Made by a program: the position numbers and the translations under genes
Shown here: positions 3,374 through 61,478 of the stretch, in pieces
How positions within the stretch are numbered: the stretch's first letter is position 1
Layout: every line of letters starts with the position of its first letter
Notes under the pieces: generated by a model
The model's input: only the letters and a program-made list of their open reading frames with translations
What the model was told of the DNA's origin: nothing
Databases searched by the model: none
NCBI GenBank assembly: GCA_048538275.1
Contig: JBLYPW010000002.1
Location: forward strand, 103,927 to 167,926
DNA from: Candidatus Komeilibacteria bacterium
Lineage (GTDB): Bacteria; Patescibacteriota; Patescibacteriia; UBA1558
DNA length: 64,000 nt
Direction: 5' to 3'

Positions 3374-3870
3374 AAAAACCAAGGCTTAGCACCATAGTGG
3401 CTATAGACAAAAATAGAGGGATTGGTAAAAATAATAAATTATTATGTCATTTGCCCAGTGATTTACGTCGTTTTAAAAAGATCACTAGCGGGCATGCCAT
3501 TATAATGGGCAGCACCACCTTTGAATCTATTGGTCGTCCCTTGCCAAATCGTACCAATATTGTATTAGCTTTTGATAAAAATTATAAAGCCGAAGGCTGT
3601 TTGTTATTTCATGATTTAGATAAGGCGATTGCTCATGCCAAAACCATTGAACCAGAGGAGATATTTATCACCGGTGGGGCCTCTATTTACCAACAGACTA
3701 TTGATCAGATTGACCGGTTGTATATCACCGTTATTGACTATGTATTTGAGGCGGATACTTTTTTCCCGTCTTATGATGAATTTAATAAATTAATTAATAA
3801 AGAGGAGGGAGAAGACGGAGGTTATAAATATAAATTTTTAGTATTAGAAAAGGAGGACAAAAATGGCTAG
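3370..3870 (+). CDS. folA: dihydrofolate reductase
   Basis: [31 protein letters not shown]...[11 protein letters not shown] are DHFR motifs. Confidence 0.9.
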
Positions 3871-4616: not shown

Positions 4617-5852
4617 ATGAAATCAAGACTAAAGCAAAATTGGCTGGCCGCCTTTTTTTTGTTGATAATATTTCCCTTATTTACGGTGTTGTTTTATCAG
4701 CATTATATTGCTTATAATGATGATCAAGGCATTGCTGAGCAAGCAACCGCCGCGGAACCGCCTAACCAAGTTTTGACCATACCTATTGGTAGTGGTGACG
4801 CCTATGGGAAGCTAATGGCTGAGGCCGGGTGGAGCGTAGTTGATTATCAAGGTATTTACAATGCCGCGCACGATATTTATGACTTGGCTAATGTCAGAGC
4901 TGGTAAAGAATTAGAATTGACTATACGCAAAGAGGATAATGTTTTATTGGCATTGGTATATAAAATAGATAGTGAGGACGAATTGGTAGTAGAGCGACAA
5001 GAGACAGAGGATGGTGCAGATGCTTGGCAAGCTAATAAACAGCCAATACCTTATGATATAAAAATCAAACACGCTGACGGCACCGTAACTTCATCCATGT
5101 ATCAAGCAGCACAGGAAAATGATATTGATGAACGAGCGATTATTGCCTTGGCAAATGCTTTTCAATGGAGCATAGATTTTGCTATGGATCCACGAGTGGG
5201 TGATACTTTTCAGTTGGTTTATGAAGAGCGCTACTTGGATGGCAAGTATATAATGCCGGGCAAGGTATTAGCCGGTCAGTATATCAACGATGGTACTACA
5301 TTTGAGGTATATTATTTTGAGGAGGATGATAGTAATATTGGCTATTTTGATGCGGACGGTAATTCAGTCCAGAAAATGTTTTTGAAAGCGCCGGTAGAGT
5401 TTAAGTATATTTCTTCTGGCTATACTACTGGCACGCGTGTAGTGATGGAGGTGGGTTTAGTAGGGCCGCATCGGGCGATTGACTATGCTGCAACATATGG
5501 TAGCCCGATACGAGCGGTGGGTGATGGCGTGATTACTTCGGCCGGCTGGTCCGGTTGTTATGGTAATTTAACAGCTATCCGACACAATGCTACATATACC
5601 ACTCGTTATGCGCATCAGTCTAAGATTATTGTTAAAGTTGGCCAGCGTGTTAAGCAAGGCGAGGTCATTGGTTATGTTGGTTCTACTGGCTGTTCTACTG
5701 GTCCTCATGTTCATTTTGAAATGATAAAAAATGGCGTTAAAATTGATTCATTGCAAGAGGTTTTACCACCAGGTAAGCCCATTAAGGATGAACATAAAGA
5801 GCGTTTTTTCCAAACGATTGTTCCTTATCAAGCCATGTTTAAACAAAAGTAA
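4617..5852 (+). CDS. M23 family metallopeptidase (LytM-like) with N-terminal TM anchor
   Basis: C-terminal GYVGSTGCSTGPHVHFEM motif; hydrophobic N-terminus. Confidence 0.85.
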   Translation: MKSRLKQNWLAAFFLLIIFPLFTVLFYQHYIAYNDDQGIAEQATAAEPPNQVLTIPIGSGDAYGKLMAEAGWSVVDYQGIYNAAHDIYDLANVRAGKELELTIRKEDNVLLALVYKIDSEDELVVERQETEDGADAWQANKQPIPYDIKIKHADGTVTSSMYQAAQENDIDERAIIALANAFQWSIDFAMDPRVGDTFQLVYEERYLDGKYIMPGKVLAGQYINDGTTFEVYYFEEDDSNIGYFDADGNSVQKMFLKAPVEFKYISSGYTTGTRVVMEVGLVGPHRAIDYAATYGSPIRAVGDGVITSAGWSGCYGNLTAIRHNATYTTRYAHQSKIIVKVGQRVKQGEVIGYVGSTGCSTGPHVHFEMIKNGVKIDSLQEVLPPGKPIKDEHKERFFQTIVPYQAMFKQK

Positions 5853-17546: not shown

Positions 17547-18425
17547 ATGTCTTTTTTTATTTTTTTATTAATAGTTGGGCTATTGATATTAGCTTGGTTG
17601 GTAGTAAGGAAGCTACCGCAGTTGAATATGATACAGCCTCACTCTACGCCGCGCGCTAAACAAGAAAAGCGTAAAAAACAAATGTATGAAGATAGATTAA
17701 AACGCCAATTAAGCCAAGTCAGTAGAGGAGCTAGTAAATGGATACAACCTTTATTAGAGGCTACGCAGAAATTATTTAAGGTTTCTTATCAGAAATTACG
17801 TAGCAAGGAGGAAGAATATAGGCATAAATTATTGCATCAAGATTTTCAAGATAGTGTAGATAAGGAACAAAAGATTGCAGCTCTTTTAACTGATGCGCAG
17901 GAAAGTTTTGCAGATAAAAATTGGAATGAAGCGGAAAGTAGATTGATAGATATTCTAAAAATGGACCCTCATAATATTGATGCTTATAATAAATTGGGCA
18001 GACTTTACTGGGAAAAGAAAGATTATGATCATGCAATAGAAATTTATGAATATTTAGCCAAATTGTCAGCTCACCCTGATGTTTATAATAATTTAGCAGC
18101 TATAGCCGAGGAAAGAGGTAATCTCGGTGAAGCTGAAAAAAACTATTTATCAGCTTTGCAATTAAATAATCAAGCCAGCGAATCTCATTATCATTTAGCG
18201 GAGCTATATGGTCAGCAGGATGATTGGGATAAAGCTCAGTTAGAGGCTAAGGCGGCGGCGAAATATAGAGCTAATAACCCTAAATATCTTGACTTTTTAT
18301 TGCGAGCGAGTATAATAGTTCAAGATAAAAAAACCGCTTTAGATACTTTGCAAAAGATGCAAGAGGTGAATCCGGAGAATAAAAAACTAGCGGTTTATCA
18401 AGAGCAAATAGATCAATTATCATAA
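17547..18425 (+). CDS. TPR-repeat protein with N-terminal TM helix
   Basis: hydrophobic N-terminus; repeated AYNKLG/YNNLA TPR-like helices. Confidence 0.6.
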   Translation: MSFFIFLLIVGLLILAWLVVRKLPQLNMIQPHSTPRAKQEKRKKQMYEDRLKRQLSQVSRGASKWIQPLLEATQKLFKVSYQKLRSKEEEYRHKLLHQDFQDSVDKEQKIAALLTDAQESFADKNWNEAESRLIDILKMDPHNIDAYNKLGRLYWEKKDYDHAIEIYEYLAKLSAHPDVYNNLAAIAEERGNLGEAEKNYLSALQLNNQASESHYHLAELYGQQDDWDKAQLEAKAAAKYRANNPKYLDFLLRASIIVQDKKTALDTLQKMQEVNPENKKLAVYQEQIDQLS

Positions 18426-18429
18426 ATAT

Positions 18430-18505
18430 GCCGTTGTAGCTCAGCTGGTAGAGCAACTCCATGGTAAGGAGTAGGTCCGCAGTTCAAGTCTGCGCAACGG
18501 CTCCA
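18430..18505 (+). tRNA. tRNA-Thr (anticodon GGT), CCA encoded
   Basis: manual cloverleaf: acceptor GCCGTTG/CAACGGC; anticodon stem ACTCC/GGAGT; loop AUGGUAA; T-loop TTCAAGT. Confidence 0.85.
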
Positions 18506-18536
18506 CTTTAAAGTCAGGCTTTATCGCCAGCTAGTA

Positions 18537-18698
18537 AATAGTGGCCTTGTAAAATCTACCAGGAGTGGCGCGCCTTGGATAGTAGTACATAGAGAGGAGT
18601 TTATTACTAGACAAGCTGCTTATAAAAGGGAACGTCAAATAAAATCGTATAAAGGTGGTACAGCATTTAAGAGATTGTTTAAAAATAAAATAGATTAA
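18537..18698 (+). pseudogene. 3' fragment of a GIY-YIG nuclease gene (duplicate copy A)
   Basis: near-identical to 18914-19075 (2 mismatches); in-frame TAG TAA immediately upstream; no start codon. Confidence 0.8.
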
Positions 18699-18704
18699 GT
18701 ACAT

Positions 18705-18815
18705 GGGTCGGTACCGAAGCGGTCCCCGCCACATTAGCGTTGCTAATGCACGGGGCGGGCAACCGGGCAGACTGCCACCGCCCTTGGCGGGGTGCCGCCA
18801 CAGGCGGCATAAATC
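18705..18815 (+). other. pseudo-tRNA-Tyr 5' portion (positions 1-40) interrupted by two 35-nt GC-rich hairpin modules
   Basis: 18705-18724 identical to tRNA-Tyr nt 1-20; insert 18725-18759; tRNA-like CAACCGGGCAGACTG; insert 18775-18809; then TAAATC. Confidence 0.7.
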
Positions 18816-18823
18816 TATTAATT

Positions 18824-19075
18824 ATGTATCTGGTTTATATATTACAAAGTAAGCTTTCTGGGCGTTATTACATTGGTCAGACAATTAATTTGGATAAGAG
18901 ATTAAAGAGACACAATAGTGGCCTTGTAAAATCTACCAGGAGTGGCGCGCCTTGGATAGTAGTACATAGAGAGGAGTTTATTACTAGACAAGCTGCTTAT
19001 AAAAGGGAACGTCAAATAAAATCGTATAAAGGCGGTGCAGCATTTAAGAGATTGTTTAAAAATAAAATAGATTAA
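18824..19075 (+). CDS. GIY-YIG nuclease family protein (small, YhbQ/UPF0213-like)
   Basis: MYLVYILQS...GRYYIGQT...KRLKRHNSG...REEF..R.AAYKRERQIKSYKG is the characteristic GIY-YIG pattern. Confidence 0.85.
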   Translation: MYLVYILQSKLSGRYYIGQTINLDKRLKRHNSGLVKSTRSGAPWIVVHREEFITRQAAYKRERQIKSYKGGAAFKRLFKNKID

Positions 19076-19081
19076 GTACAT

Positions 19082-19167
19082 GGGTCGGTACCGAAGCGGT
19101 CAACCGGGGCAGACTGTAAATCTGCTGGCTTTCGCCTTCGTAGGTTCGAATCCTACCCGGCCCACCA
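19082..19167 (+). tRNA. tRNA-Tyr (anticodon GTA), long variable arm, CCA encoded
   Basis: anticodon stem GCAGA/TCTGC with loop CUGUAAA; T-arm GGTTCGAATCC; acceptor GGGTCGG/CCGGCCC. Confidence 0.85.
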
Positions 19168-19214
19168 CGCCCGTGGAGTCAATTGATGAATTTACTCTAC
19201 GGGCGTGTTTTTTA
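19168..19214 (+). terminator. intrinsic terminator after tRNA-Tyr
   Basis: cgcccgtggagt...actctacgggcg stem followed by tgtttttt. Confidence 0.6.
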
Positions 19215-19274
19215 TAGATTATAAATAAAGCCCACCCGGAAGTGGACTATAATTTTTCATTTTGTTGTAAACTT

Positions 19275-20027
19275 TTATTCTATTAAAAGCATGGCAAACA
19301 TCAGACCAACGCCAATACCGACCATGACAAACTGTAATAATGTTTTTTTAATGGCTATTTCCTTATGCAGCTCCGGGACCAGGTCAGAGCCAGCAATATA
19401 GATAAAACCACCAGCCGCGGTTGCTAAAGCGTATTCGGTTACGGCTGTTATGTTATGGCCGATTATGAGAGCTAGTGCAGCTCCGATAATAGCTATGCTG
19501 GCGGAGAGTAGATTGAGCCAAATAGCTTTTGTTTTACTGAAACCAGCATGTAGTAGTAGTCCAAAGTCACTAATTTCTTGAGGAATTTCATGCAAAATGA
19601 CCGTTATGGTGGTGGCTATGCCTACCGGCAAAGAAACTAAATAAGCAACGGCAATAATGATACCATCAATAAGATTATGAATGCCATCGGAAATTAAATT
19701 TAGATAACCCAGCGGTTTAATGGTCTCATGACTATGATCAGAGTGATGATAATGATGCCAATTGAGAAACTTTTCCATGATAAAAAATATACATATTCCG
19801 GCTAAAATAAAGAATGAAGACCATACGGGATGAGTAGCGTCGCTGTATATTTCTGGAATGAGGTGAATAAAAGCATCACCAAATAAGGCGCCAACAGCCA
19901 AACTGACTAGTAGCCAAATTAGAGTTTTTTGTTTTTGTTCCTTATAAAATATGGTGATGACCCCAACCAATGAGATAAGACTGACTACAATTACGCTGGT
20001 CAATGTCCAAATCCAGATAGGCGACAT
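19275..20027 (-). CDS. zupT: ZIP-family zinc transporter
   Basis: multi-TM; HEIPQEISDF and HNLIDGIIIA ZIP signatures; His-rich loop. Confidence 0.8.
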   Translation of the reverse strand: MSPIWIWTLTSVIVVSLISLVGVITIFYKEQKQKTLIWLLVSLAVGALFGDAFIHLIPEIYSDATHPVWSSFFILAGICIFFIMEKFLNWHHYHHSDHSHETIKPLGYLNLISDGIHNLIDGIIIAVAYLVSLPVGIATTITVILHEIPQEISDFGLLLHAGFSKTKAIWLNLLSASIAIIGAALALIIGHNITAVTEYALATAAGGFIYIAGSDLVPELHKEIAIKKTLLQFVMVGIGVGLMFAMLLIE

Positions 20028-24556: not shown

Positions 24557-24689
24557 TTTCATTATAGCTTGAACTCGCCGATTCATCTCGCCTTTGGCGC
24601 GATTACTCTTGACTCGTTCGACTATTCCTTTTTTTCTCATTCATTTAACCCTTCGGGTCCAAGTGAATTCGAAGTTAAATATATTAGAC

Positions 24690-25020
24690 CGTTAAGGTCT
24701 TTTTTAATTGGTCAGGAAACCCCGCACGAGCCCCCAGCGAGTGCGGGGATGAATGACTCCTCTCTTAACACGAACCGAAGGGTCGTGTTAAGCTATAACC
24801 ATGAGAATCCGAGCTCTAAATCATTCCACCTATCAACACCAATATCATATAGTTTGGGGAACAAAGTATCGCCGGAAATTTTTGAAAGAGTATGTTAAGC
24901 CAGAAGGATACACCGCAAACAACTACGTTCGGATTCTAATGAAACGAAAGGAAACCCCGCCTGAAAAAAGACTACCTTTGGGTAGTCTTTTTGAGCGCGG
25001 GGAGGATGTCATTTGTTTTA
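24690..25020 (+). mobile_element. decayed IS200/IS605-like remnant: two GGAAACCCCGC...GCGGGG subterminal-type hairpins bracketing a truncated Y1-transposase (TnpA) N-terminal fragment
   Basis: hairpins at about 24700-24746 and 24952-25009 share the 12-mer AGGAAACCCCGC; ORF 24801-25025 begins HSTYQHQYHIVWGTKYRRKFL like IS200 TnpA but lacks the HuH region. Confidence 0.55.
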
Positions 25021-38735: not shown

Positions 38736-39587
38736 ATGAAAAGAATAAGTATAATAAAAGCAGATGGCAGTAAGCGCGCTTTTAGCTATAAGAAATTATT
38801 ACATTCAGTAGAACGAGCCGGAGCTAATAGAGAAACAGCCAAGCGAGTGGCTAAATCTGTTTTAGCGCAGTTGCCTCGGGAAATAAATACCAATCAGCTT
38901 TATGATTTAATATATAAAGAATTGCGCAGTACGCATAGACCGGCGGCGCAAGTTTATTCTTTACGCCGAGCTTTGGCTGATTTGCCGCCGGAAGTATGGG
39001 AGAAATATATTGCAAAATTGTTTTCTTATTATGGTTATATTACGACATGGAATGTGATAGTGCCGGGCGCTAGCGTAGAACATCAAGTGGATGTTATTGC
39101 AAAACGAGATGATAAAGTTTGGCTGATAGAATGTAAGCATCATTACGATTATCATCGCGACACCGGCTTGGGCGAAATTTTACAGGTACAAGCTAGATTA
39201 GAAGATGTGCAAGATGGGTATAAAATTGGTAAAAATAAATATGGTTTTACGGGTGCTTGGTTAGTAACTAATACAAAATTTTCTAATCATAATAAACGTT
39301 ATGCCGAAGCAAAAAAAATAAATTTAAGCGGTTGGCGTTATCCGGAGAAATATAGTTTAGAGCGCCTGATACAAGATAAGGCAGTTTATCCGCTTACTAT
39401 TCTTTCATTGGATAAGCAGAGTCGTCATTGGTTAATGAATAATAACATTCTTACCTTGCAAGACGTCTTAGCAAATGGCAATAAGATTATAAAAAATTTG
39501 GGTAAAGATAAGGCAGATCGCTTAGCTCGTCAAGTGCAGCATTTGTTGGATTTTGGTACAGAACAATCAGGCTGGACAAGATTGTAG
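38736..39587 (+). CDS. ATP-cone domain fused to an Mrr-like restriction endonuclease domain
   Basis: N-terminal IIKADGSKRAFSYKKLLHSVERAG (ATP-cone); central Mrr_cat-like D...E.K: VEHQVDVIAKRDDKVWLIECKHH. Confidence 0.65.
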   Translation: MKRISIIKADGSKRAFSYKKLLHSVERAGANRETAKRVAKSVLAQLPREINTNQLYDLIYKELRSTHRPAAQVYSLRRALADLPPEVWEKYIAKLFSYYGYITTWNVIVPGASVEHQVDVIAKRDDKVWLIECKHHYDYHRDTGLGEILQVQARLEDVQDGYKIGKNKYGFTGAWLVTNTKFSNHNKRYAEAKKINLSGWRYPEKYSLERLIQDKAVYPLTILSLDKQSRHWLMNNNILTLQDVLANGNKIIKNLGKDKADRLARQVQHLLDFGTEQSGWTRL

Positions 39588-39677
39588 TTTTTCGTTAAAC
39601 TACTGTCGTTATGTTTCTGATTTTTAGATTATATAGCATAAATTGATGTCTGGTTCTGACTACGGCGTGACAAGTTA

Positions 39678-39698
39678 TAATATATCGGGCTGTAGCGC
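39678..39698 (+). repeat. duplicated 5' end of tRNA-Pro (acceptor plus D-stem, with 8 nt of upstream flank), direct repeat of 39807-39827
   Basis: taatatatcgggctgtagcgc identical at both sites. Confidence 0.8.
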
Positions 39699-39733
39699 CC
39701 CGTACAACTCAATTCTTTCGTTTACGGGGCAAG
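39699..39733 (+). other. 35-nt hairpin module CCCG-N21-ACGGGGC (same architecture as 18725-18759)
   Basis: cccgta...tacgggg stem; ACGGGGC heptamer at offset 26-32 in both modules. Confidence 0.6.
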
Positions 39734-39814
39734 CAGTTTTAGCCACAGGCTAATTAACTTCTGGCCAAGACTAGCACCAAGGTTATTTTTTTGATAGAAG
39801 AATATTTAATATAT

Positions 39815-39891
39815 CGGGCTGTAGCGCAGTTGGCTAGCGCGCCACGTTCGGGACGTGGAGGTCGGAGGTTCAAGTCCTCTCAGCCCGACCA
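39815..39891 (+). tRNA. tRNA-Pro (anticodon CGG)
   Basis: acceptor CGGGCTG/CAGCCCG; anticodon stem CCACG/CGTGG with loop UUCGGGA; T-loop TTCAAGT. Confidence 0.85.
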
Positions 39892-39978
39892 TAAAATTTT
39901 TTCACTATAAGATTTTATGGATAATTATTTTCAAATAAAGCTAAATATTTTAAGTATCTATTATTTTAATATTGTAAT

Positions 39979-40404
39979 ATGTTAAAGAACGTATCAATAG
40001 TAGTAATAATCATTTTAGTCATTATAGCCGCGTGGTGGTATTGGTTTGATAACTCAGTCGTATCTCCGCCGCTTCAAGAAGAGCCTGCTGTTGTTATATT
40101 AGATGATTTGCGAGCTGGAGATGTGATCAGTAGTCCATTAACTTTTCATGGTCAGGCACGGGGTTGGTGGTTTTTTGAAGCCAGCTTCCCGGTACATATA
40201 TTGGATGATAAAGATAATATTATAGCTACCGGTTTAGCTACGGCTAGTAGTGATTGGATGACTGAGGATTATGTTCCTTTTACCGCTCAGATAAAATTTA
40301 CTGTCCCGCCAGGAGTAAAAGGCACATTGGTATTACAAAAAGATAATCCTTCCGGTTTACCAGAACATGATGCCAGTATCATTCTACCAATAAAATTTAA
40401 GTAG
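39979..40404 (+). CDS. hypothetical secreted protein (Gmad2/Ig-like domain possible)
   Basis: N-terminal TM or signal; beta-rich C-terminus; tentative. Confidence 0.4.
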   Translation: MLKNVSIVVIIILVIIAAWWYWFDNSVVSPPLQEEPAVVILDDLRAGDVISSPLTFHGQARGWWFFEASFPVHILDDKDNIIATGLATASSDWMTEDYVPFTAQIKFTVPPGVKGTLVLQKDNPSGLPEHDASIILPIKFK

Positions 40405-40405
40405 T

Positions 40406-40708: not shown

Positions 40709-40769
40709 TTAGTTTTGAGGTATAAAAAAACCCCTACCAAGTTAATCTCAATAGGGGGTTTGGTTGTTT

Positions 40770-41060
40770 TTAGCCAGCAATACGCTGGCTTAATTTTTTT
40801 CCAATCAAGACGATAATTGATGCGAGAAGCCACACCGCTGTTATCGCAAATATTGGGTATTGTTCAAGATTTTTGATAATGGCACCCGCTGTGCCGTGGC
40901 TTGCTGCGTAGGAGAATAGAAGCGCCGTGTAAAACGTTATTGTAAGTAACATCCCCCACGCCATGCTTTCGCACATACTTTTCATTTTAAGTCCTTCCTG
41001 GTTTTTATTGGTCTTTTTAGAGGATGTAAATATGATAGCATATATATTATATTTTGTCAA
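40770..41060 (-). CDS. small hypothetical membrane protein
   Basis: two hydrophobic helices. Confidence 0.4.
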   Translation of the reverse strand: MTKYNIYAIIFTSSKKTNKNQEGLKMKSMCESMAWGMLLTITFYTALLFSYAASHGTAGAIIKNLEQYPIFAITAVWLLASIIVLIGKKLSQRIAG

Positions 41061-41304
41061 TAGGTGTTGTAAATTTTTGGCTAAAATTAGGCAATAAATT
41101 TTATATCATTATTTTATTAGTAATAAATCATTTTTTTATATATTTGTTTGGCCTTAAGACAATGCCTAAATTGAATTATGATGAAGGTAAACAGCTTAAT
41201 CATAATTGGAAATCAGTTGCCGTTCAAACGCCAACTTATCGATCAGATACGGAAGACCATGACGCATGATCTTCTCGTGTCGTAAAAGAGGGTATAATAT
41301 TAAT

Positions 41305-42303
41305 CTATATCCTCTTTCTTTTTTTTAGTATAATTTTAGCTGGACAGCTAGAATTTATTTGAGAAGATTTAGAGATTATTTCTAGCAGTGCCAGGTGTTC
41401 ATTATTTAGTAGCTTTAAACTGTTTGTCAAGAGTGATAATATTGCAAGAGCTTTGTTTCGCAGTGTAGATGATGGGTATCTTAGTATATCTGATGAGAGA
41501 ATATCAAATAGTTTAGATTTCTCAGTATTAGGTAGATTTGTAACTAGTGGTATTAGTTGTAATAGTATAATATTTTTCTCTTTTTCTGATCCAGTAGTAA
41601 GATTTTTCAGTAATTTTTTAAATAGTATAGAATCCTTTTTTACCCAGCTCATAGCATATAATTCCTCATAGGTGTAGTTATTTTCATTATCACGATTAAG
41701 TAAATTATTATCTGTATCCTCCATTATCTGGTTGATTTTTTTTTCGATTTTGTATAATTGTCTATTCTGTGAAAATAACATTCCATCAATTTTTATATAT
41801 TTTATATTTACATTTGATTTTTCAAATAGAAGTTCAGATAATTTTTCATGCTTCTTTATAATAGAATTTAGTTTATTATTTTGGTTTGAAGATTGTTTTT
41901 TTGGGCCTATCATTTGAAGTAGTTTAGGATTTTTGGTTATATCTATATTGATTACAGTATGTCCCTTATCTGGATAATAAGGATTCATTGTAGAACACAC
42001 AATCCAATTATTCTTTTCTAATTCATGAATTATTTTTTTTATAATAAATCTAAATTCTTTTGTGTTATATTTATTACCTAAATAGTATCCAACAATTTTT
42101 GGATTGTTTTCTAAAATAGGTAGAGATGATCCGCTATATGACCACAATTCAATGTCTTTGAGAGTGTATTTCATGCAATTATTATAACATAAATTGGGCT
42201 TATTTATATAATTATAACCTTGGTGAGTGTTCACGTAGAAAATAGGGTATTTTAGAACCATTTTTTTGTAAGATTTATATTTATTACAATCTATTCTTGA
42301 CAA
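41305..42303 (-). CDS. hypothetical protein (AT-rich orphan, 332 aa)
   Basis: long ORF with strongly AT-biased codons; no recognisable motif. Confidence 0.45.
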   Translation of the reverse strand: MSRIDCNKYKSYKKMVLKYPIFYVNTHQGYNYINKPNLCYNNCMKYTLKDIELWSYSGSSLPILENNPKIVGYYLGNKYNTKEFRFIIKKIIHELEKNNWIVCSTMNPYYPDKGHTVINIDITKNPKLLQMIGPKKQSSNQNNKLNSIIKKHEKLSELLFEKSNVNIKYIKIDGMLFSQNRQLYKIEKKINQIMEDTDNNLLNRDNENNYTYEELYAMSWVKKDSILFKKLLKNLTTGSEKEKNIILLQLIPLVTNLPNTEKSKLFDILSSDILRYPSSTLRNKALAILSLLTNSLKLLNNEHLALLEIISKSSQINSSCPAKIILKKRKRI

Positions 42304-42328
42304 TATTTTAGAAACTACTATAATGGAA

Positions 42329-42355
42329 TTAGCACTCTTGAATGGAGAGTGCTAA
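42329..42355 (+). promoter_or_regulatory. CIRCE operator (HrcA binding site)
   Basis: TTAGCACTC-N9-GAGTGCTAA perfect consensus immediately upstream of hrcA. Confidence 0.9.
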
Positions 42356-60065: not shown

Positions 60066-60162
60066 TTTAAATTGTATCCAAGTTTAGTAAAATGGAGAAT
60101 GGCTGTTATTCTAGAGACTTGATTACAGTTCGAATGTTAGCCTTGAAGAGTTTAACAAAAGA

Positions 60163-60192
60163 GTTCTAAAGTTGTCCCGGTATGCGAGCCAA
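60163..60192 (+). repeat. 30-bp direct repeat copy 1 (GTTCTAAAGTTGTCCCGGTATGCGAGCCAA)
   Basis: identical copy at 61449-61478; the two copies flank the Fic gene. Confidence 0.85.
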
Positions 60193-61399: not shown

Positions 61400-61448
61400 T
61401 ATTTTTTATAAGAACATTGCCATCTAATTGTTGTTTGTGGTTAAAAAA

Positions 61449-61478
61449 GTTCTAAAGTTGTCCCGGTATGCGAGCCAA
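61449..61478 (+). repeat. 30-bp direct repeat copy 2
   Basis: identical to 60163-60192. Confidence 0.85.

Follow-up and report, generated by a model that had tools for sequence, protein, structure and literature searches.

Among the closest described counterparts of the arrangement reported here is one from phages. SegB, a free-standing GIY-YIG homing endonuclease of the phages T4/T6, cuts within tRNA genes, and its motif RAWTSGAAC is the T-loop sequence on the other strand (PMC13096335). Together with uvsX and uvsY it drives the tandem amplification of a 718-bp unit, which comprises a truncated segB besides tRNA-Tyr and shows microhomology at the 5' end of the tRNA (PMC13096335); segB homologues are significantly linked to tRNAs (PMC13096335, PMC2330249). 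In the present study, 64,000 nt of a genome of Candidatus Komeilibacteria bacterium (assembly GCA_048538275.1, contig JBLYPW010000002.1, positions 103,927 to 167,926 of the forward strand; this whole stretch is called the window) were analysed with regard to the gene for tRNA-Pro(CGG). Upstream of this gene lies a broken copy of its own 5' end, followed by a GC-rich hairpin. Such copies form a family of tRNA-gene rearrangements which is common in genomes of the candidate phyla radiation (CPR; Patescibacteria) and apparently undescribed. Within the partly covered literature, no account was found that describes, for Patescibacteria, either GC hairpins in tRNA pieces or minimal GIY-YIG genes beside tRNAs. 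By analogy, the feature would act like a free-standing homing-endonuclease cassette combined with palindromes of the REP (repetitive extragenic palindrome) or mitochondrial GC-cluster type.

Integrative elements classically insert into tRNA genes and are then bounded by direct repeats of tRNA parts. In such cases it is the 3' part of the tRNA that the integrase duplicates, at the far side of the inserted DNA. REPs of E. coli are preceded by the tetranucleotide GTAG. Mitochondrial GC clusters, double-hairpin elements (DHEs) and repetitive hairpin elements of fungal and sponge mitochondrial DNA (mtDNA) are short (30-80 nt) GC palindromes in A/T-rich genomes; they are often paired hairpins and multicopy, occupy spacers and non-essential parts of RNA genes, and have been linked to recombination (PMC4478555, PMC2800124). 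Group I introns at tRNA position 35/36 were reported for Patescibacteria (PMC13011429). Background on the Slx1/UPF0213 branch of the GIY-YIG family is given in PMC1564403.

The tRNA-Pro locus and its counterpart in a relative

The tRNA-Pro feature is interpreted here as the scar which a duplication/insertion in the D arm left upstream, and as a decayed, nuclease-less member of the CPR family of tRNA-gene rearrangements; the probability of this reading is put at roughly 0.55. In a self-comparison of the window, the exact 21-mer TAATATATCGGGCTGTAGCGC was found at 39678-39698 and again at 39807-39827, as the initial annotation had stated together with the 8-nt flank. Since tRNA-Pro starts at 39815, the repeat consists of 8 nt of upstream flank (39678-39685 in the distal copy) and tRNA positions 1-13, which cover the acceptor 5' strand, U8 A9 and the D-stem 5' strand. 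The pseudo-5' piece lies 129 nt upstream of the intact copy, and 108 nt are enclosed by the repeats. For this window, the chance expectation of an exact 21-nt repeat within 600 nt is about 1e-5. Four local direct repeats of at least 14 nt are present in the 64 kb; the longest two are tRNA 5' ends (tRNA-Tyr and tRNA-Pro).

Directly after the upstream copy, a GC hairpin module had been annotated, and an 8-bp stem was indeed found there (39697-39730). Its strands GCCCCGTA (39697-39704) and TACGGGGC (39723-39730) enclose an A/T-rich loop of 18 nt, and its first two bases are the last two bases (GC) of the tRNA fragment. The tRNA sequence resumes at 39733; therefore the module interrupts the D arm of a pseudo-tRNA as an insert, which agrees with the D-arm region named as the target by the initial annotation. 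Two nucleotides, GC, are duplicated on either side of the insert. For a given 6-mer within a few nucleotides of the insert end we estimate a chance of about 0.002-0.005, and the same resumption was observed in the loci L045, L030, L033, L094, L267 and L270. The TTAGCC behind the resumed GCAGTT is possibly a decayed GGCTAGC, with which the copy would reach about tRNA position 24; the part beyond GCAGTT is only suggestive.

No better alignment with the tRNA than with shuffles was obtained for 39731-39806, locally or globally. Six-frame translation of 39588-39814, with stops throughout, gave no GIY-YIG gene or remnant, and Rfam gave no match for 39600-39814 at E <= 10. Regarding the category 'nested tRNA', which was defined in this analysis, the locus has the same-strand 5' piece upstream and the D-arm hairpin with resumption. 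A downstream pseudo-3' piece is missing; the sequence 3' of tRNA-Pro gave no more than a weak A/T-rich 13-mer (ACTATAAGATTTT at 39904), which has 2 mismatches.

The gene order ROK, GH1, EamA, glycosidase, ATP-cone/Mrr, RNHCP and, further on, HrcA and GrpE is conserved in relatives. In six related lineages the RNHCP gene follows 0-22 nt after the ATP-cone gene, with no tRNA between them. Two lineages only have tRNA-Pro(CGG) at this position: the window, together with a Gmad2 gene, and the lineage of the loci L006, L007 and L008, whose ATP-cone protein is about 60% identical to that of the window. Measured against the six lineages, the tRNA-Pro and Gmad2 segment is an extra 818 nt (39588-40405) between ATP-cone/Mrr and RNHCP. 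A 141-aa open reading frame (ORF) beside RNHCP in L006 was rejected as the counterpart of the Gmad2 gene, as no similarity was found.

At its tRNA-Pro locus L006 shows ATATAT-CGGGCTGTAG (positions 1-10), the hairpin TCCCGCC-TCT-GGCGGGA, an unalignable spacer of 67 nt and the intact tRNA. Outside the tRNA-derived parts, the spacer of the window could not be aligned with this counterpart. A T-arm/acceptor piece with three GC hairpins, GGAGGTT[TCCGCCGGAGGCGGA][TCAGCCTCTGGCTGA]CAAGTCC[CTGCCTGCCGTCAGGCAGG]CTCTCAGCCCGATCA, follows 44 nt 3' of the tRNA-Pro of L006. L008 equals L006 over 2,300 nt save for one extra tandem unit of 121 nt (L006 5750 / L008 2427-2547; the contigs are from different samples). 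This unit comprises the tRNA-Pro 3' end, the trailer and the hairpin-bearing pseudo-3' piece, and the difference may reflect either genuine copy-number variation or a collapsed assembly.

The A/T-rich box that abuts the pseudo-5' piece of the window is probably the original promoter-proximal flank of tRNA-Pro and may have promoter function; a consensus promoter scan gave no call at 39676..39685. In L006, TATAGATATAT is found where the window has this distal box. Of the six tRNA 5' ends in the window, five have an A/T box 0-3 nt before them, which ends with ..TAATAT, ..TATCAT or ..AAATAT; the sites are the tRNAs at 18430, 24483, 39815 and 56197 and the distal copy at 39686. The sequences suggest promoters or leader signals unusually near the mature tRNA 5' end.

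Nested tRNA genes in CPR bacteria

The succession of truncated 5' tRNA copy, GC hairpin, spacer and intact tRNA had been proposed as recurrent by the initial annotation, and it was recovered at the orthologous L006 locus and at many CPR loci. Scanning one genome per species with the 5' 26-mer of tRNA-Pro gave 46 loci, mostly of Patescibacteria. Partial self-copies of at least 11 nt, counted only where no neighbouring complete tRNA explains them, were present in the flanks of nine of these loci (about 0.7 expected), and two more tRNA-Pro loci have the first 9 nt with duplicated flank. Over the fetched loci, partial self-copies were found at 27 of 118 tRNAs, compared with 3 matches in the reverse-complement control. 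The polarity is strict, with 5' pieces upstream (14 5' parts, 1 middle part, 0 3' parts) and 3' pieces downstream (16 3' parts, 6 middle parts, 0 5' parts). A GC hairpin, counted when its stem has 6 or more base pairs and 5 or more of these are G/C, abuts 17 of 37 fragment breakpoints, whereas this applies to 2.9% of random positions in the same loci; at loci not chosen via the hairpin pattern the count is 10 of 20 breakpoints. The locus samples are biased by the mode of retrieval, and the own genome is covered over 64 kb. From polarity, hairpin enrichment and recurrence it follows that the core idea of a recurring arrangement was right.

Breakpoints cluster in loop-coding positions. Those of tRNA-Pro lie at 9/10 (L006, L025, L027, L042) and at 23/24 (L023, L040, L045, L030, probably the window), and hairpin inserts at 17/18 occur in three independent genomes (L030, L033, L045). 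In other tRNAs, breaks or inserts affect the anticodon loop at 35/36 (L060 Asn, L098 Ser, L113 and L069 Tyr) and the T loop at 55-57 (L006, L035, L041, L044, L069, L098). The arrangement recurs at tRNA-Pro, Ser, Tyr, Asn, Lys, Thr and Phe loci of CPR bacteria, and arrays of units are present in L033, L040, L041, L044 and L273. Two tandem pseudo-tRNA-Phe 3' units follow the intact tRNA-Phe in L044 (2940-3135). Their T arm is replaced, not interrupted, by the tetraloop hairpin GTCCCGC-TCAA-GCGGGAC of the same size, and their D-stem/anticodon-stem region is replaced by CCCGC-TTT-GCGGG. A mask of ~100 N lies between the upstream tRNA-Pro piece and the intact tRNA in L023 (about 4923-5021) and L042 (about 3700-3810); a palindromic junction in L042 was rejected, since the masked run separates its halves.

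Three elements had been overlooked by the initial annotation: the resumption of the tRNA after the module, a small GIY-YIG gene and the downstream 3' tRNA pieces. The complete arrangement consists of a pseudo-5' piece, one or more hairpins, the gene of a ~80-aa GIY-YIG protein of the Slx1/UPF0213 type, the intact tRNA and a pseudo-3' piece. Hence, a working tRNA, with or without nuclease gene, is nested inside a broken copy of itself. In complete members the GIY-YIG gene ends 3-8 nt upstream of the intact tRNA, the hairpin modules directly before its start codon are embedded in the pseudo-5' piece, and this piece keeps the old promoter-proximal flank. Often, a T-arm/acceptor piece that likewise has hairpin inserts is located downstream. 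By iterative search of the fetched loci, GIY-YIG ORFs were found adjoining tRNA-Tyr, Pro, Ile, Asn, Thr, Ser and Arg. The stretch from the pseudo-5' piece to the start codon usually holds hairpin modules.

As an unbiased test, three GIY-YIG homologues were drawn from the protein database without knowledge of their context. In all three cases the stop codon is followed by a tRNA (Ser, Ser, Lys) at a distance of 3, 7 or 99 nt, a pseudo-5' piece of this tRNA lies together with GC hairpins just 5' of the ATG, and a pseudo-3' piece (T arm with loop insert plus acceptor end) lies beyond the tRNA terminator. The GIY-YIG ORFs of L033 (5543-5833 and 5929-6219) run through the double hairpin and end at the TAG of the D loop (...AVSAIGGPASGGG and stop). 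Therefore, nuclease gene and pseudo-tRNA overlap in this locus, where the entire unit of 386 nt is present twice.

The window itself contains a complete nested unit at tRNA-Tyr (18492-19247). The order is tRNA-Thr, truncated GIY-YIG copy, pseudo-tRNA-Tyr 1-41 with two modules, GIY-YIG gene, tRNA-Tyr, terminator and pseudo-3' piece (Table 1). A direct repeat of 188 nt (18537-18724 / 18914-19101) occurs with a spacing of 377 nt. The tRNA resumes here as well, with GCGGTC before module 1 and GCGGGC after it, and module 2 has the same make-up as the modules 5' of the GIY-YIG gene in L267. Between the GIY-YIG stop codon and tRNA-Tyr lie 6 nt. The 83-aa protein matched the PDB entries 1zg2 (E = 3e-6) and 1ywl (E = 2e-5) and, weakly, SLX1; its homologues are CPR proteins of about 80 aa. 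Judged by its sequence, it is assigned to the bacterial Slx1/UPF0213 branch, with the catalytic domain only. Rfam gave no ribozyme or intron family for 18400-19300, and tRNAs only for the 64-kb window.

Table 1. Features of the tRNA-Pro and tRNA-Tyr loci (positions in the window)
Feature	Position	Strand	Basis or remark
A/T-rich box TATAATATAT	39676..39685	+	abuts pseudo-5' piece; perfect TATAAT at 39676-39681
Pseudo-tRNA-Pro 5' piece, identical to tRNA positions 1-13	39686..39698	+	exact self-match
34-nt insert carrying GC hairpin	39699..39732	+	stem search and folding
Pseudo-tRNA resumption GCAGTT (39733-39738, = tRNA positions 12-17), then TTAGCC	39733..39744	+	sequence
A/T-rich spacer, 62 nt, without ORF	39745..39806	+	alignment and six-frame translation
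Second copy of 8-nt flank	39807-39814	+	directly before intact tRNA-Pro
tRNA-Pro(CGG), intact	39815-39891	+	ARAGORN; Rfam tRNA 66.2 bits
5'-truncated GIY-YIG copy, 6 nt, pseudo-tRNA-Tyr positions 1-20	18492..18724	+	repeat search
Rest of pseudo-tRNA-Tyr 5' half, with two hairpin modules	18725..18816	+	sequence
Hairpin module 1, 35 nt	18725-18759	+	CCCGCC ... GGCGGG, long loop
Pseudo-tRNA-Tyr positions 20-34	18760-18774	+	
Hairpin module 2, 35 nt, double hairpin	18775-18809	+	CCGCC-CTT-GGCGG plus GCCGCC-ACA-GGCGGC
Pseudo-tRNA-Tyr positions 35-41	18810-18816	+	
GIY-YIG nuclease gene, 83 aa, minimal bacterial Slx1/UPF0213 type	18824..19075	+	Pfam PF01541, E = 3.9e-16
tRNA-Tyr, intact	19082-19167	+	ARAGORN
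Intrinsic terminator of tRNA-Tyr	19166-19215	+	
Pseudo-3' piece GCCCACCCGGAAGTGGAC	19230-19247	+	repeats acceptor end and terminator start

The window holds three GC modules, all of them inside tRNA pieces. Many inserts of the family are double hairpins with YCNGCC/GGCNGR stems and 3-nt loops, for example TCCGCC-NNN-GGCGGA followed by TCAGCC-TCT-GGCTGA; module 2 of the pseudo-tRNA-Tyr belongs to this type. A metagenome scan for this module gave at least 120 loci (L058-L177). Among the matches listed, 99 of 158 show full complementarity in the unconstrained part of the second hairpin, and stem positions 3 (C-G 85, A-T 29, T-A 16) and 1 (T-A 99, C-G 19, T-G 17) co-vary. Loop sequences are free to vary, and TTT...AAA or further inverted repeats (T-shaped) are frequent as flanks. 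Again among the matches listed, 11 of 95 modules are situated within 300 nt of a tRNA, nine of them within 50 nt, where about one would be expected from the tRNA density. One genome (L045) contains multiple identical module copies. No Rfam family was found for the double hairpins. Sixteen complete copies were seen on viral contigs (loci L182-L261). The tRNA-Pro hairpin (CCCCG stem, 18-nt loop) and module 1 of the pseudo-tRNA-Tyr are long-loop variants and not the canonical double hairpin; module 1 is comparable to L069.

For these two long-loop modules a shared pattern CCCG-N21-ACGGGGC had been claimed. It is exact at 39699-39730 and 18725-18756, and none of 100 shuffles reached the observed count; the pattern was, however, derived from the very two sequences on which it was then tested. 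As a family signature it failed. The loops of the two modules agree at 6 of 22 positions, which is random, and 1.93 Mb of related and other loci gave 3 matches, with about 1 expected and none beside a tRNA piece.

Compared with the described systems, the CPR loci resemble SegB in the GIY-YIG gene adjoining tRNAs, and the 377-nt repeat of the window tRNA-Tyr also has a truncated GIY-YIG and a partial tRNA-Tyr. In contrast to proteins of the Seg/I-TevI type with their DNA-binding domains, the CPR proteins are ~80-aa Slx1/UPF0213 forms with the catalytic domain only. Moreover, they are encoded by cellular CPR genomes and not by phages, the partial tRNAs carry GC palindromes, and the tRNA is nested between 5' and 3' pieces. 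Of a Seg-like homing cassette, the GIY-YIG ORF is present at the tRNA-Tyr locus and absent at tRNA-Pro. With the mtDNA GC clusters the CPR modules share the short GC-rich palindromes, often as two adjacent hairpins, the many copies, the A/T-rich genomic setting, the location in spacers and non-essential parts of RNA genes and the link to recombination. They differ in the bacterial host and in the YCNGCC/GGCNGR stems with 3-nt loops, and a hint of mobility is limited to the identical copies in L045.

REPs and bacterial interspersed mosaic elements are likewise GC-rich, imperfect, often paired and intergenic palindromes. GTAG (tRNA positions 7-10) is found 3 nt before the stem in the window and directly before that of L006, but it belongs to the tRNA; other CPR inserts follow GTT, CTGT, CTCG and similar sequences instead. 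No gene of a RAYT (Y1 HUH) transposase, the enzyme type associated with REPs, was seen, though no search aimed at it was made. Similar to integrative elements in tRNA genes, a partial copy lies beside an intact tRNA, and the inserted DNA brings the replacement part, so that the tRNA is functional. The CPR units, however, are tiny, with the 5' part upstream and the 3' part downstream, and have a GIY-YIG gene in place of an integrase. Group I introns are known from the same phylum, and the pseudo-copies in L060, L098, L113 and L069 are broken at the same position 35/36. The difference is that Rfam detected no ribozyme, the copies are truncated, an uninterrupted gene is present and the insert at tRNA-Pro is located in the D arm.

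Possible origin of the arrangement

The following course is proposed for the family. A break would occur in tRNA loop-coding DNA (D loop 9-24, anticodon loop 35/36, T loop 55-57) and would be repaired by copying a cassette-bearing template or by unequal exchange with a sister copy. The template would supply, in this order, the hairpin, the GIY-YIG gene and a copy of tRNA positions 1 to k, set between the pseudo-5' piece and the remaining tRNA; on the 3' side a mirror-image version would apply. Because the copied segment would end in a duplicate of the displaced tRNA part, one intact tRNA would always be regenerated, and the displaced piece would be left behind with the hairpin module at or near the break. 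As the target is regenerated, the process would be repeatable, which would explain the arrays and the truncated GIY-YIG copy 5' of the pseudo-tRNA-Tyr in the window. SegB provides a direct experimental precedent. Clustered breakpoints, the arrays and the 121-nt copy-number difference between otherwise identical contigs would be indirect support for site-specific cutting of the neighbouring gene and for transfer into nuclease-less alleles.

For tRNA-Pro, the predicted empty site is ...GTTATAATATATCGGGCTGTAGCGCAGTTGG.... Today's locus would accordingly comprise the old flank, positions 1-13, the 34-nt hairpin insert, decayed positions 12-17 and the 62-nt spacer where the nuclease gene may have been. 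Since no nuclease gene is left, 39678-39806 is read as a decayed relic. The feature is most likely neutral today, at most part of a long 5' leader which RNase P has to remove; the relic may keep the original promoter, hence the leader of 129 nt.

For the hairpins several roles are conceivable. They may be selfish palindromes, similar to REPs or GC clusters, which persist only at sites where they do no harm. Alternatively, they may break up the displaced piece and thereby keep it from folding, recombining or being cut again. Furthermore, they may be structured DNA for a structure-specific nuclease of the Slx1 type, or 5' stem-loops of the nuclease mRNA.

Several points weigh against the scar reading. 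The tRNA-Pro locus has neither a GIY-YIG gene nor a recognisable remnant of it, its spacer is not demonstrably derived from tRNA or nuclease, and its hairpin is not of the common double-hairpin type. About 88% of the metagenome double-hairpin modules, among the matches listed, are not near tRNAs; hence the hairpins may be unrelated hitch-hikers. The DNA-binding domains known from proven homing endonucleases are absent from the tRNA-linked GIY-YIG proteins. A regenerated tRNA would also remain a target and thus be exposed to continual cutting. The unit by which L006 and L008 differ is, with 121 nt, shorter than k = 141, and thus the difference could result from assembly collapse. Finally, the distal flank is alike in two distant lineages, which could hint at selection for function and not at a relic.

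If the proposed course holds, CPR tRNA genes would be recurrent targets of a compact nuclease cassette that inserts into an essential gene without an intron, by duplicating the displaced part. This would explain the tRNA pieces and GC hairpins that litter the tRNA flanks of the tiny CPR genomes, and would provide a cellular counterpart to the SegB-driven tRNA amplification in phages. Uncharacterised bacterial Slx1/UPF0213 GIY-YIG proteins would gain a biological context, and an abundant palindromic repeat family (YCNGCC-N3-GGCNGR, doubled) would be defined in CPR metagenomes. The tRNA pieces can mislead tRNA annotation, intron searches and the prediction of genomic islands (att sites) in CPR genomes.

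A further-reaching proposal is advanced tentatively. According to it, the family would be a selfish element of CPR bacteria, in which a minimal Slx1-type GIY-YIG gene invades tRNA loop positions and stays harmless by means of the duplicated tRNA part. The palindromic hairpins would be a cis-acting structure, perhaps a cruciform or branched target of the nuclease, and tRNA-Pro would be a fossil. In a bolder, hypothetical version, the real substrate of the nuclease would be tRNA, and the transcripts of the hairpin-bearing pseudo-tRNAs would act against it as RNA decoys or antidotes.

Among the rival explanations, a functional 5' leader survives best, and we regard it as unlikely. Transcription would start from the distal TATAAT (39676-39681), and piece and hairpin would be a selected leader structure which stabilizes the precursor, guides or delays RNase P, or blocks mispairing of the leader with the tRNA 3' strand. 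Two lineages with about 60% protein identity and an otherwise unalignable spacer do share the distal A/T box, the piece and a GC hairpin. The tRNA-Pro leader also folds better than shuffles (z = -2.9), with GGCUGU pairing with GCAGUU, by which the hairpin is lengthened and the piece is sequestered. Moreover, complete cassettes leave the tRNA no room for an own promoter, so that the promoter must lie 5' of the pseudo-piece. However, sequence, size and position of the hairpin differ between the two lineages (after position 13 and after position 10, respectively), about 75-80% of the tRNA-Pro loci with the same tRNA 5' half are without such a piece, and the six related lineages have no tRNA at all at this locus. 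Neither covariation nor an Rfam family supports a conserved structure. In part, leader and scar overlap, as a relic can be co-opted.

Ordinary local duplication by slippage or unequal exchange, with the hairpin there by chance, appears improbable. Tandem partial duplications including the upstream flank do occur in L027, L042, L040 and at tRNA-Tyr of the window, and the absence of a nuclease gene from tRNA-Pro would fit. Yet this explanation predicts that the 108 nt between the copies are repeated 5' of the first copy, which is not the case. Strict polarity, breakpoints at the loop positions 9/10, 17/18, 23/24, 35/36 and 55-57 and the 16-fold hairpin enrichment point to a specific process instead.

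Far less probable is the att remnant of an integrase element which had once entered tRNA-Pro and was later mostly deleted. The tRNA-Pro and Gmad2 segment is absent at this place from six related lineages, as would be expected from it. In contrast, the 5' part of the tRNA is duplicated here, and upstream, only 108 nt lie between the repeats, and the neighbours (ATP-cone/Mrr, Gmad2, RNHCP) have no integrase or recombinase domain.

A terminator of the upstream ATP-cone/Mrr gene combined with a coincidental or misassembled 21-mer can practically be dismissed: a GC stem does lie 110 nt past the stop codon at 39587, with a TTTT run starting 7 nt after it, but the 18-nt loop, the CAAGCAG before TTTT and the lack of an adjacent T run contradict a terminator, the scanner made no call, the gap of 0-22 nt after the relatives' ATP-cone gene means that there was no ancestral terminator, the 21-nt repeat is shorter than assembler k-mers and cannot cause misassembly, and the same arrangement is present in independent assemblies of a relative. 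For the tRNA-Pro module, geometry and synteny contradict the possibility, raised by the initial annotation, that the modules are ordinary intrinsic terminators of upstream genes.

Its suggestions of an intron-like or MITE-like element (miniature inverted-repeat transposable element) or of a tRNA-leader-derived small RNA found no support either. A tRNA intron, group I or bulge-helix-bulge, was rejected, as the interrupted copy is truncated (recognisable for positions 1-17 only, perhaps to 24) and the uninterrupted tRNA-Pro follows. A ribozyme intron was likewise rejected, since Rfam found tRNAs only at gathering and permissive thresholds. The module is a single stem-loop with only the 2-nt GC duplicated and no terminal inverted repeats distinct from the stem, which speaks against a MITE. 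Nothing in the analysis shows a leader-derived small RNA.

Further observations in the window

Downstream of tRNA-Trp (24557-24800), several hairpins follow one another, among them CCCCGCAC-N13-GTGCGGGG (about 24720-24750) and GACCGTTAAGGTC with a T run, which resembles a terminator. Neither an Rfam match nor a detectable tRNA-Trp piece was found in 24557-24800.

After RNHCP, the NTPase_I-T gene of the relatives is replaced in the window (40709-42348) by two low-GC ORFs on the minus strand (40770-41060 and 41305-42303), for which no Pfam match was obtained. In a low-GC stretch, two consecutive ORFs are preceded by the copies of a 36-nt direct repeat (97% identical; 60157-60192 and 61443-61478). 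The GC content is 28-30% in the regions 26-30 kb and 58-62 kb, compared with about 38% elsewhere in the window.

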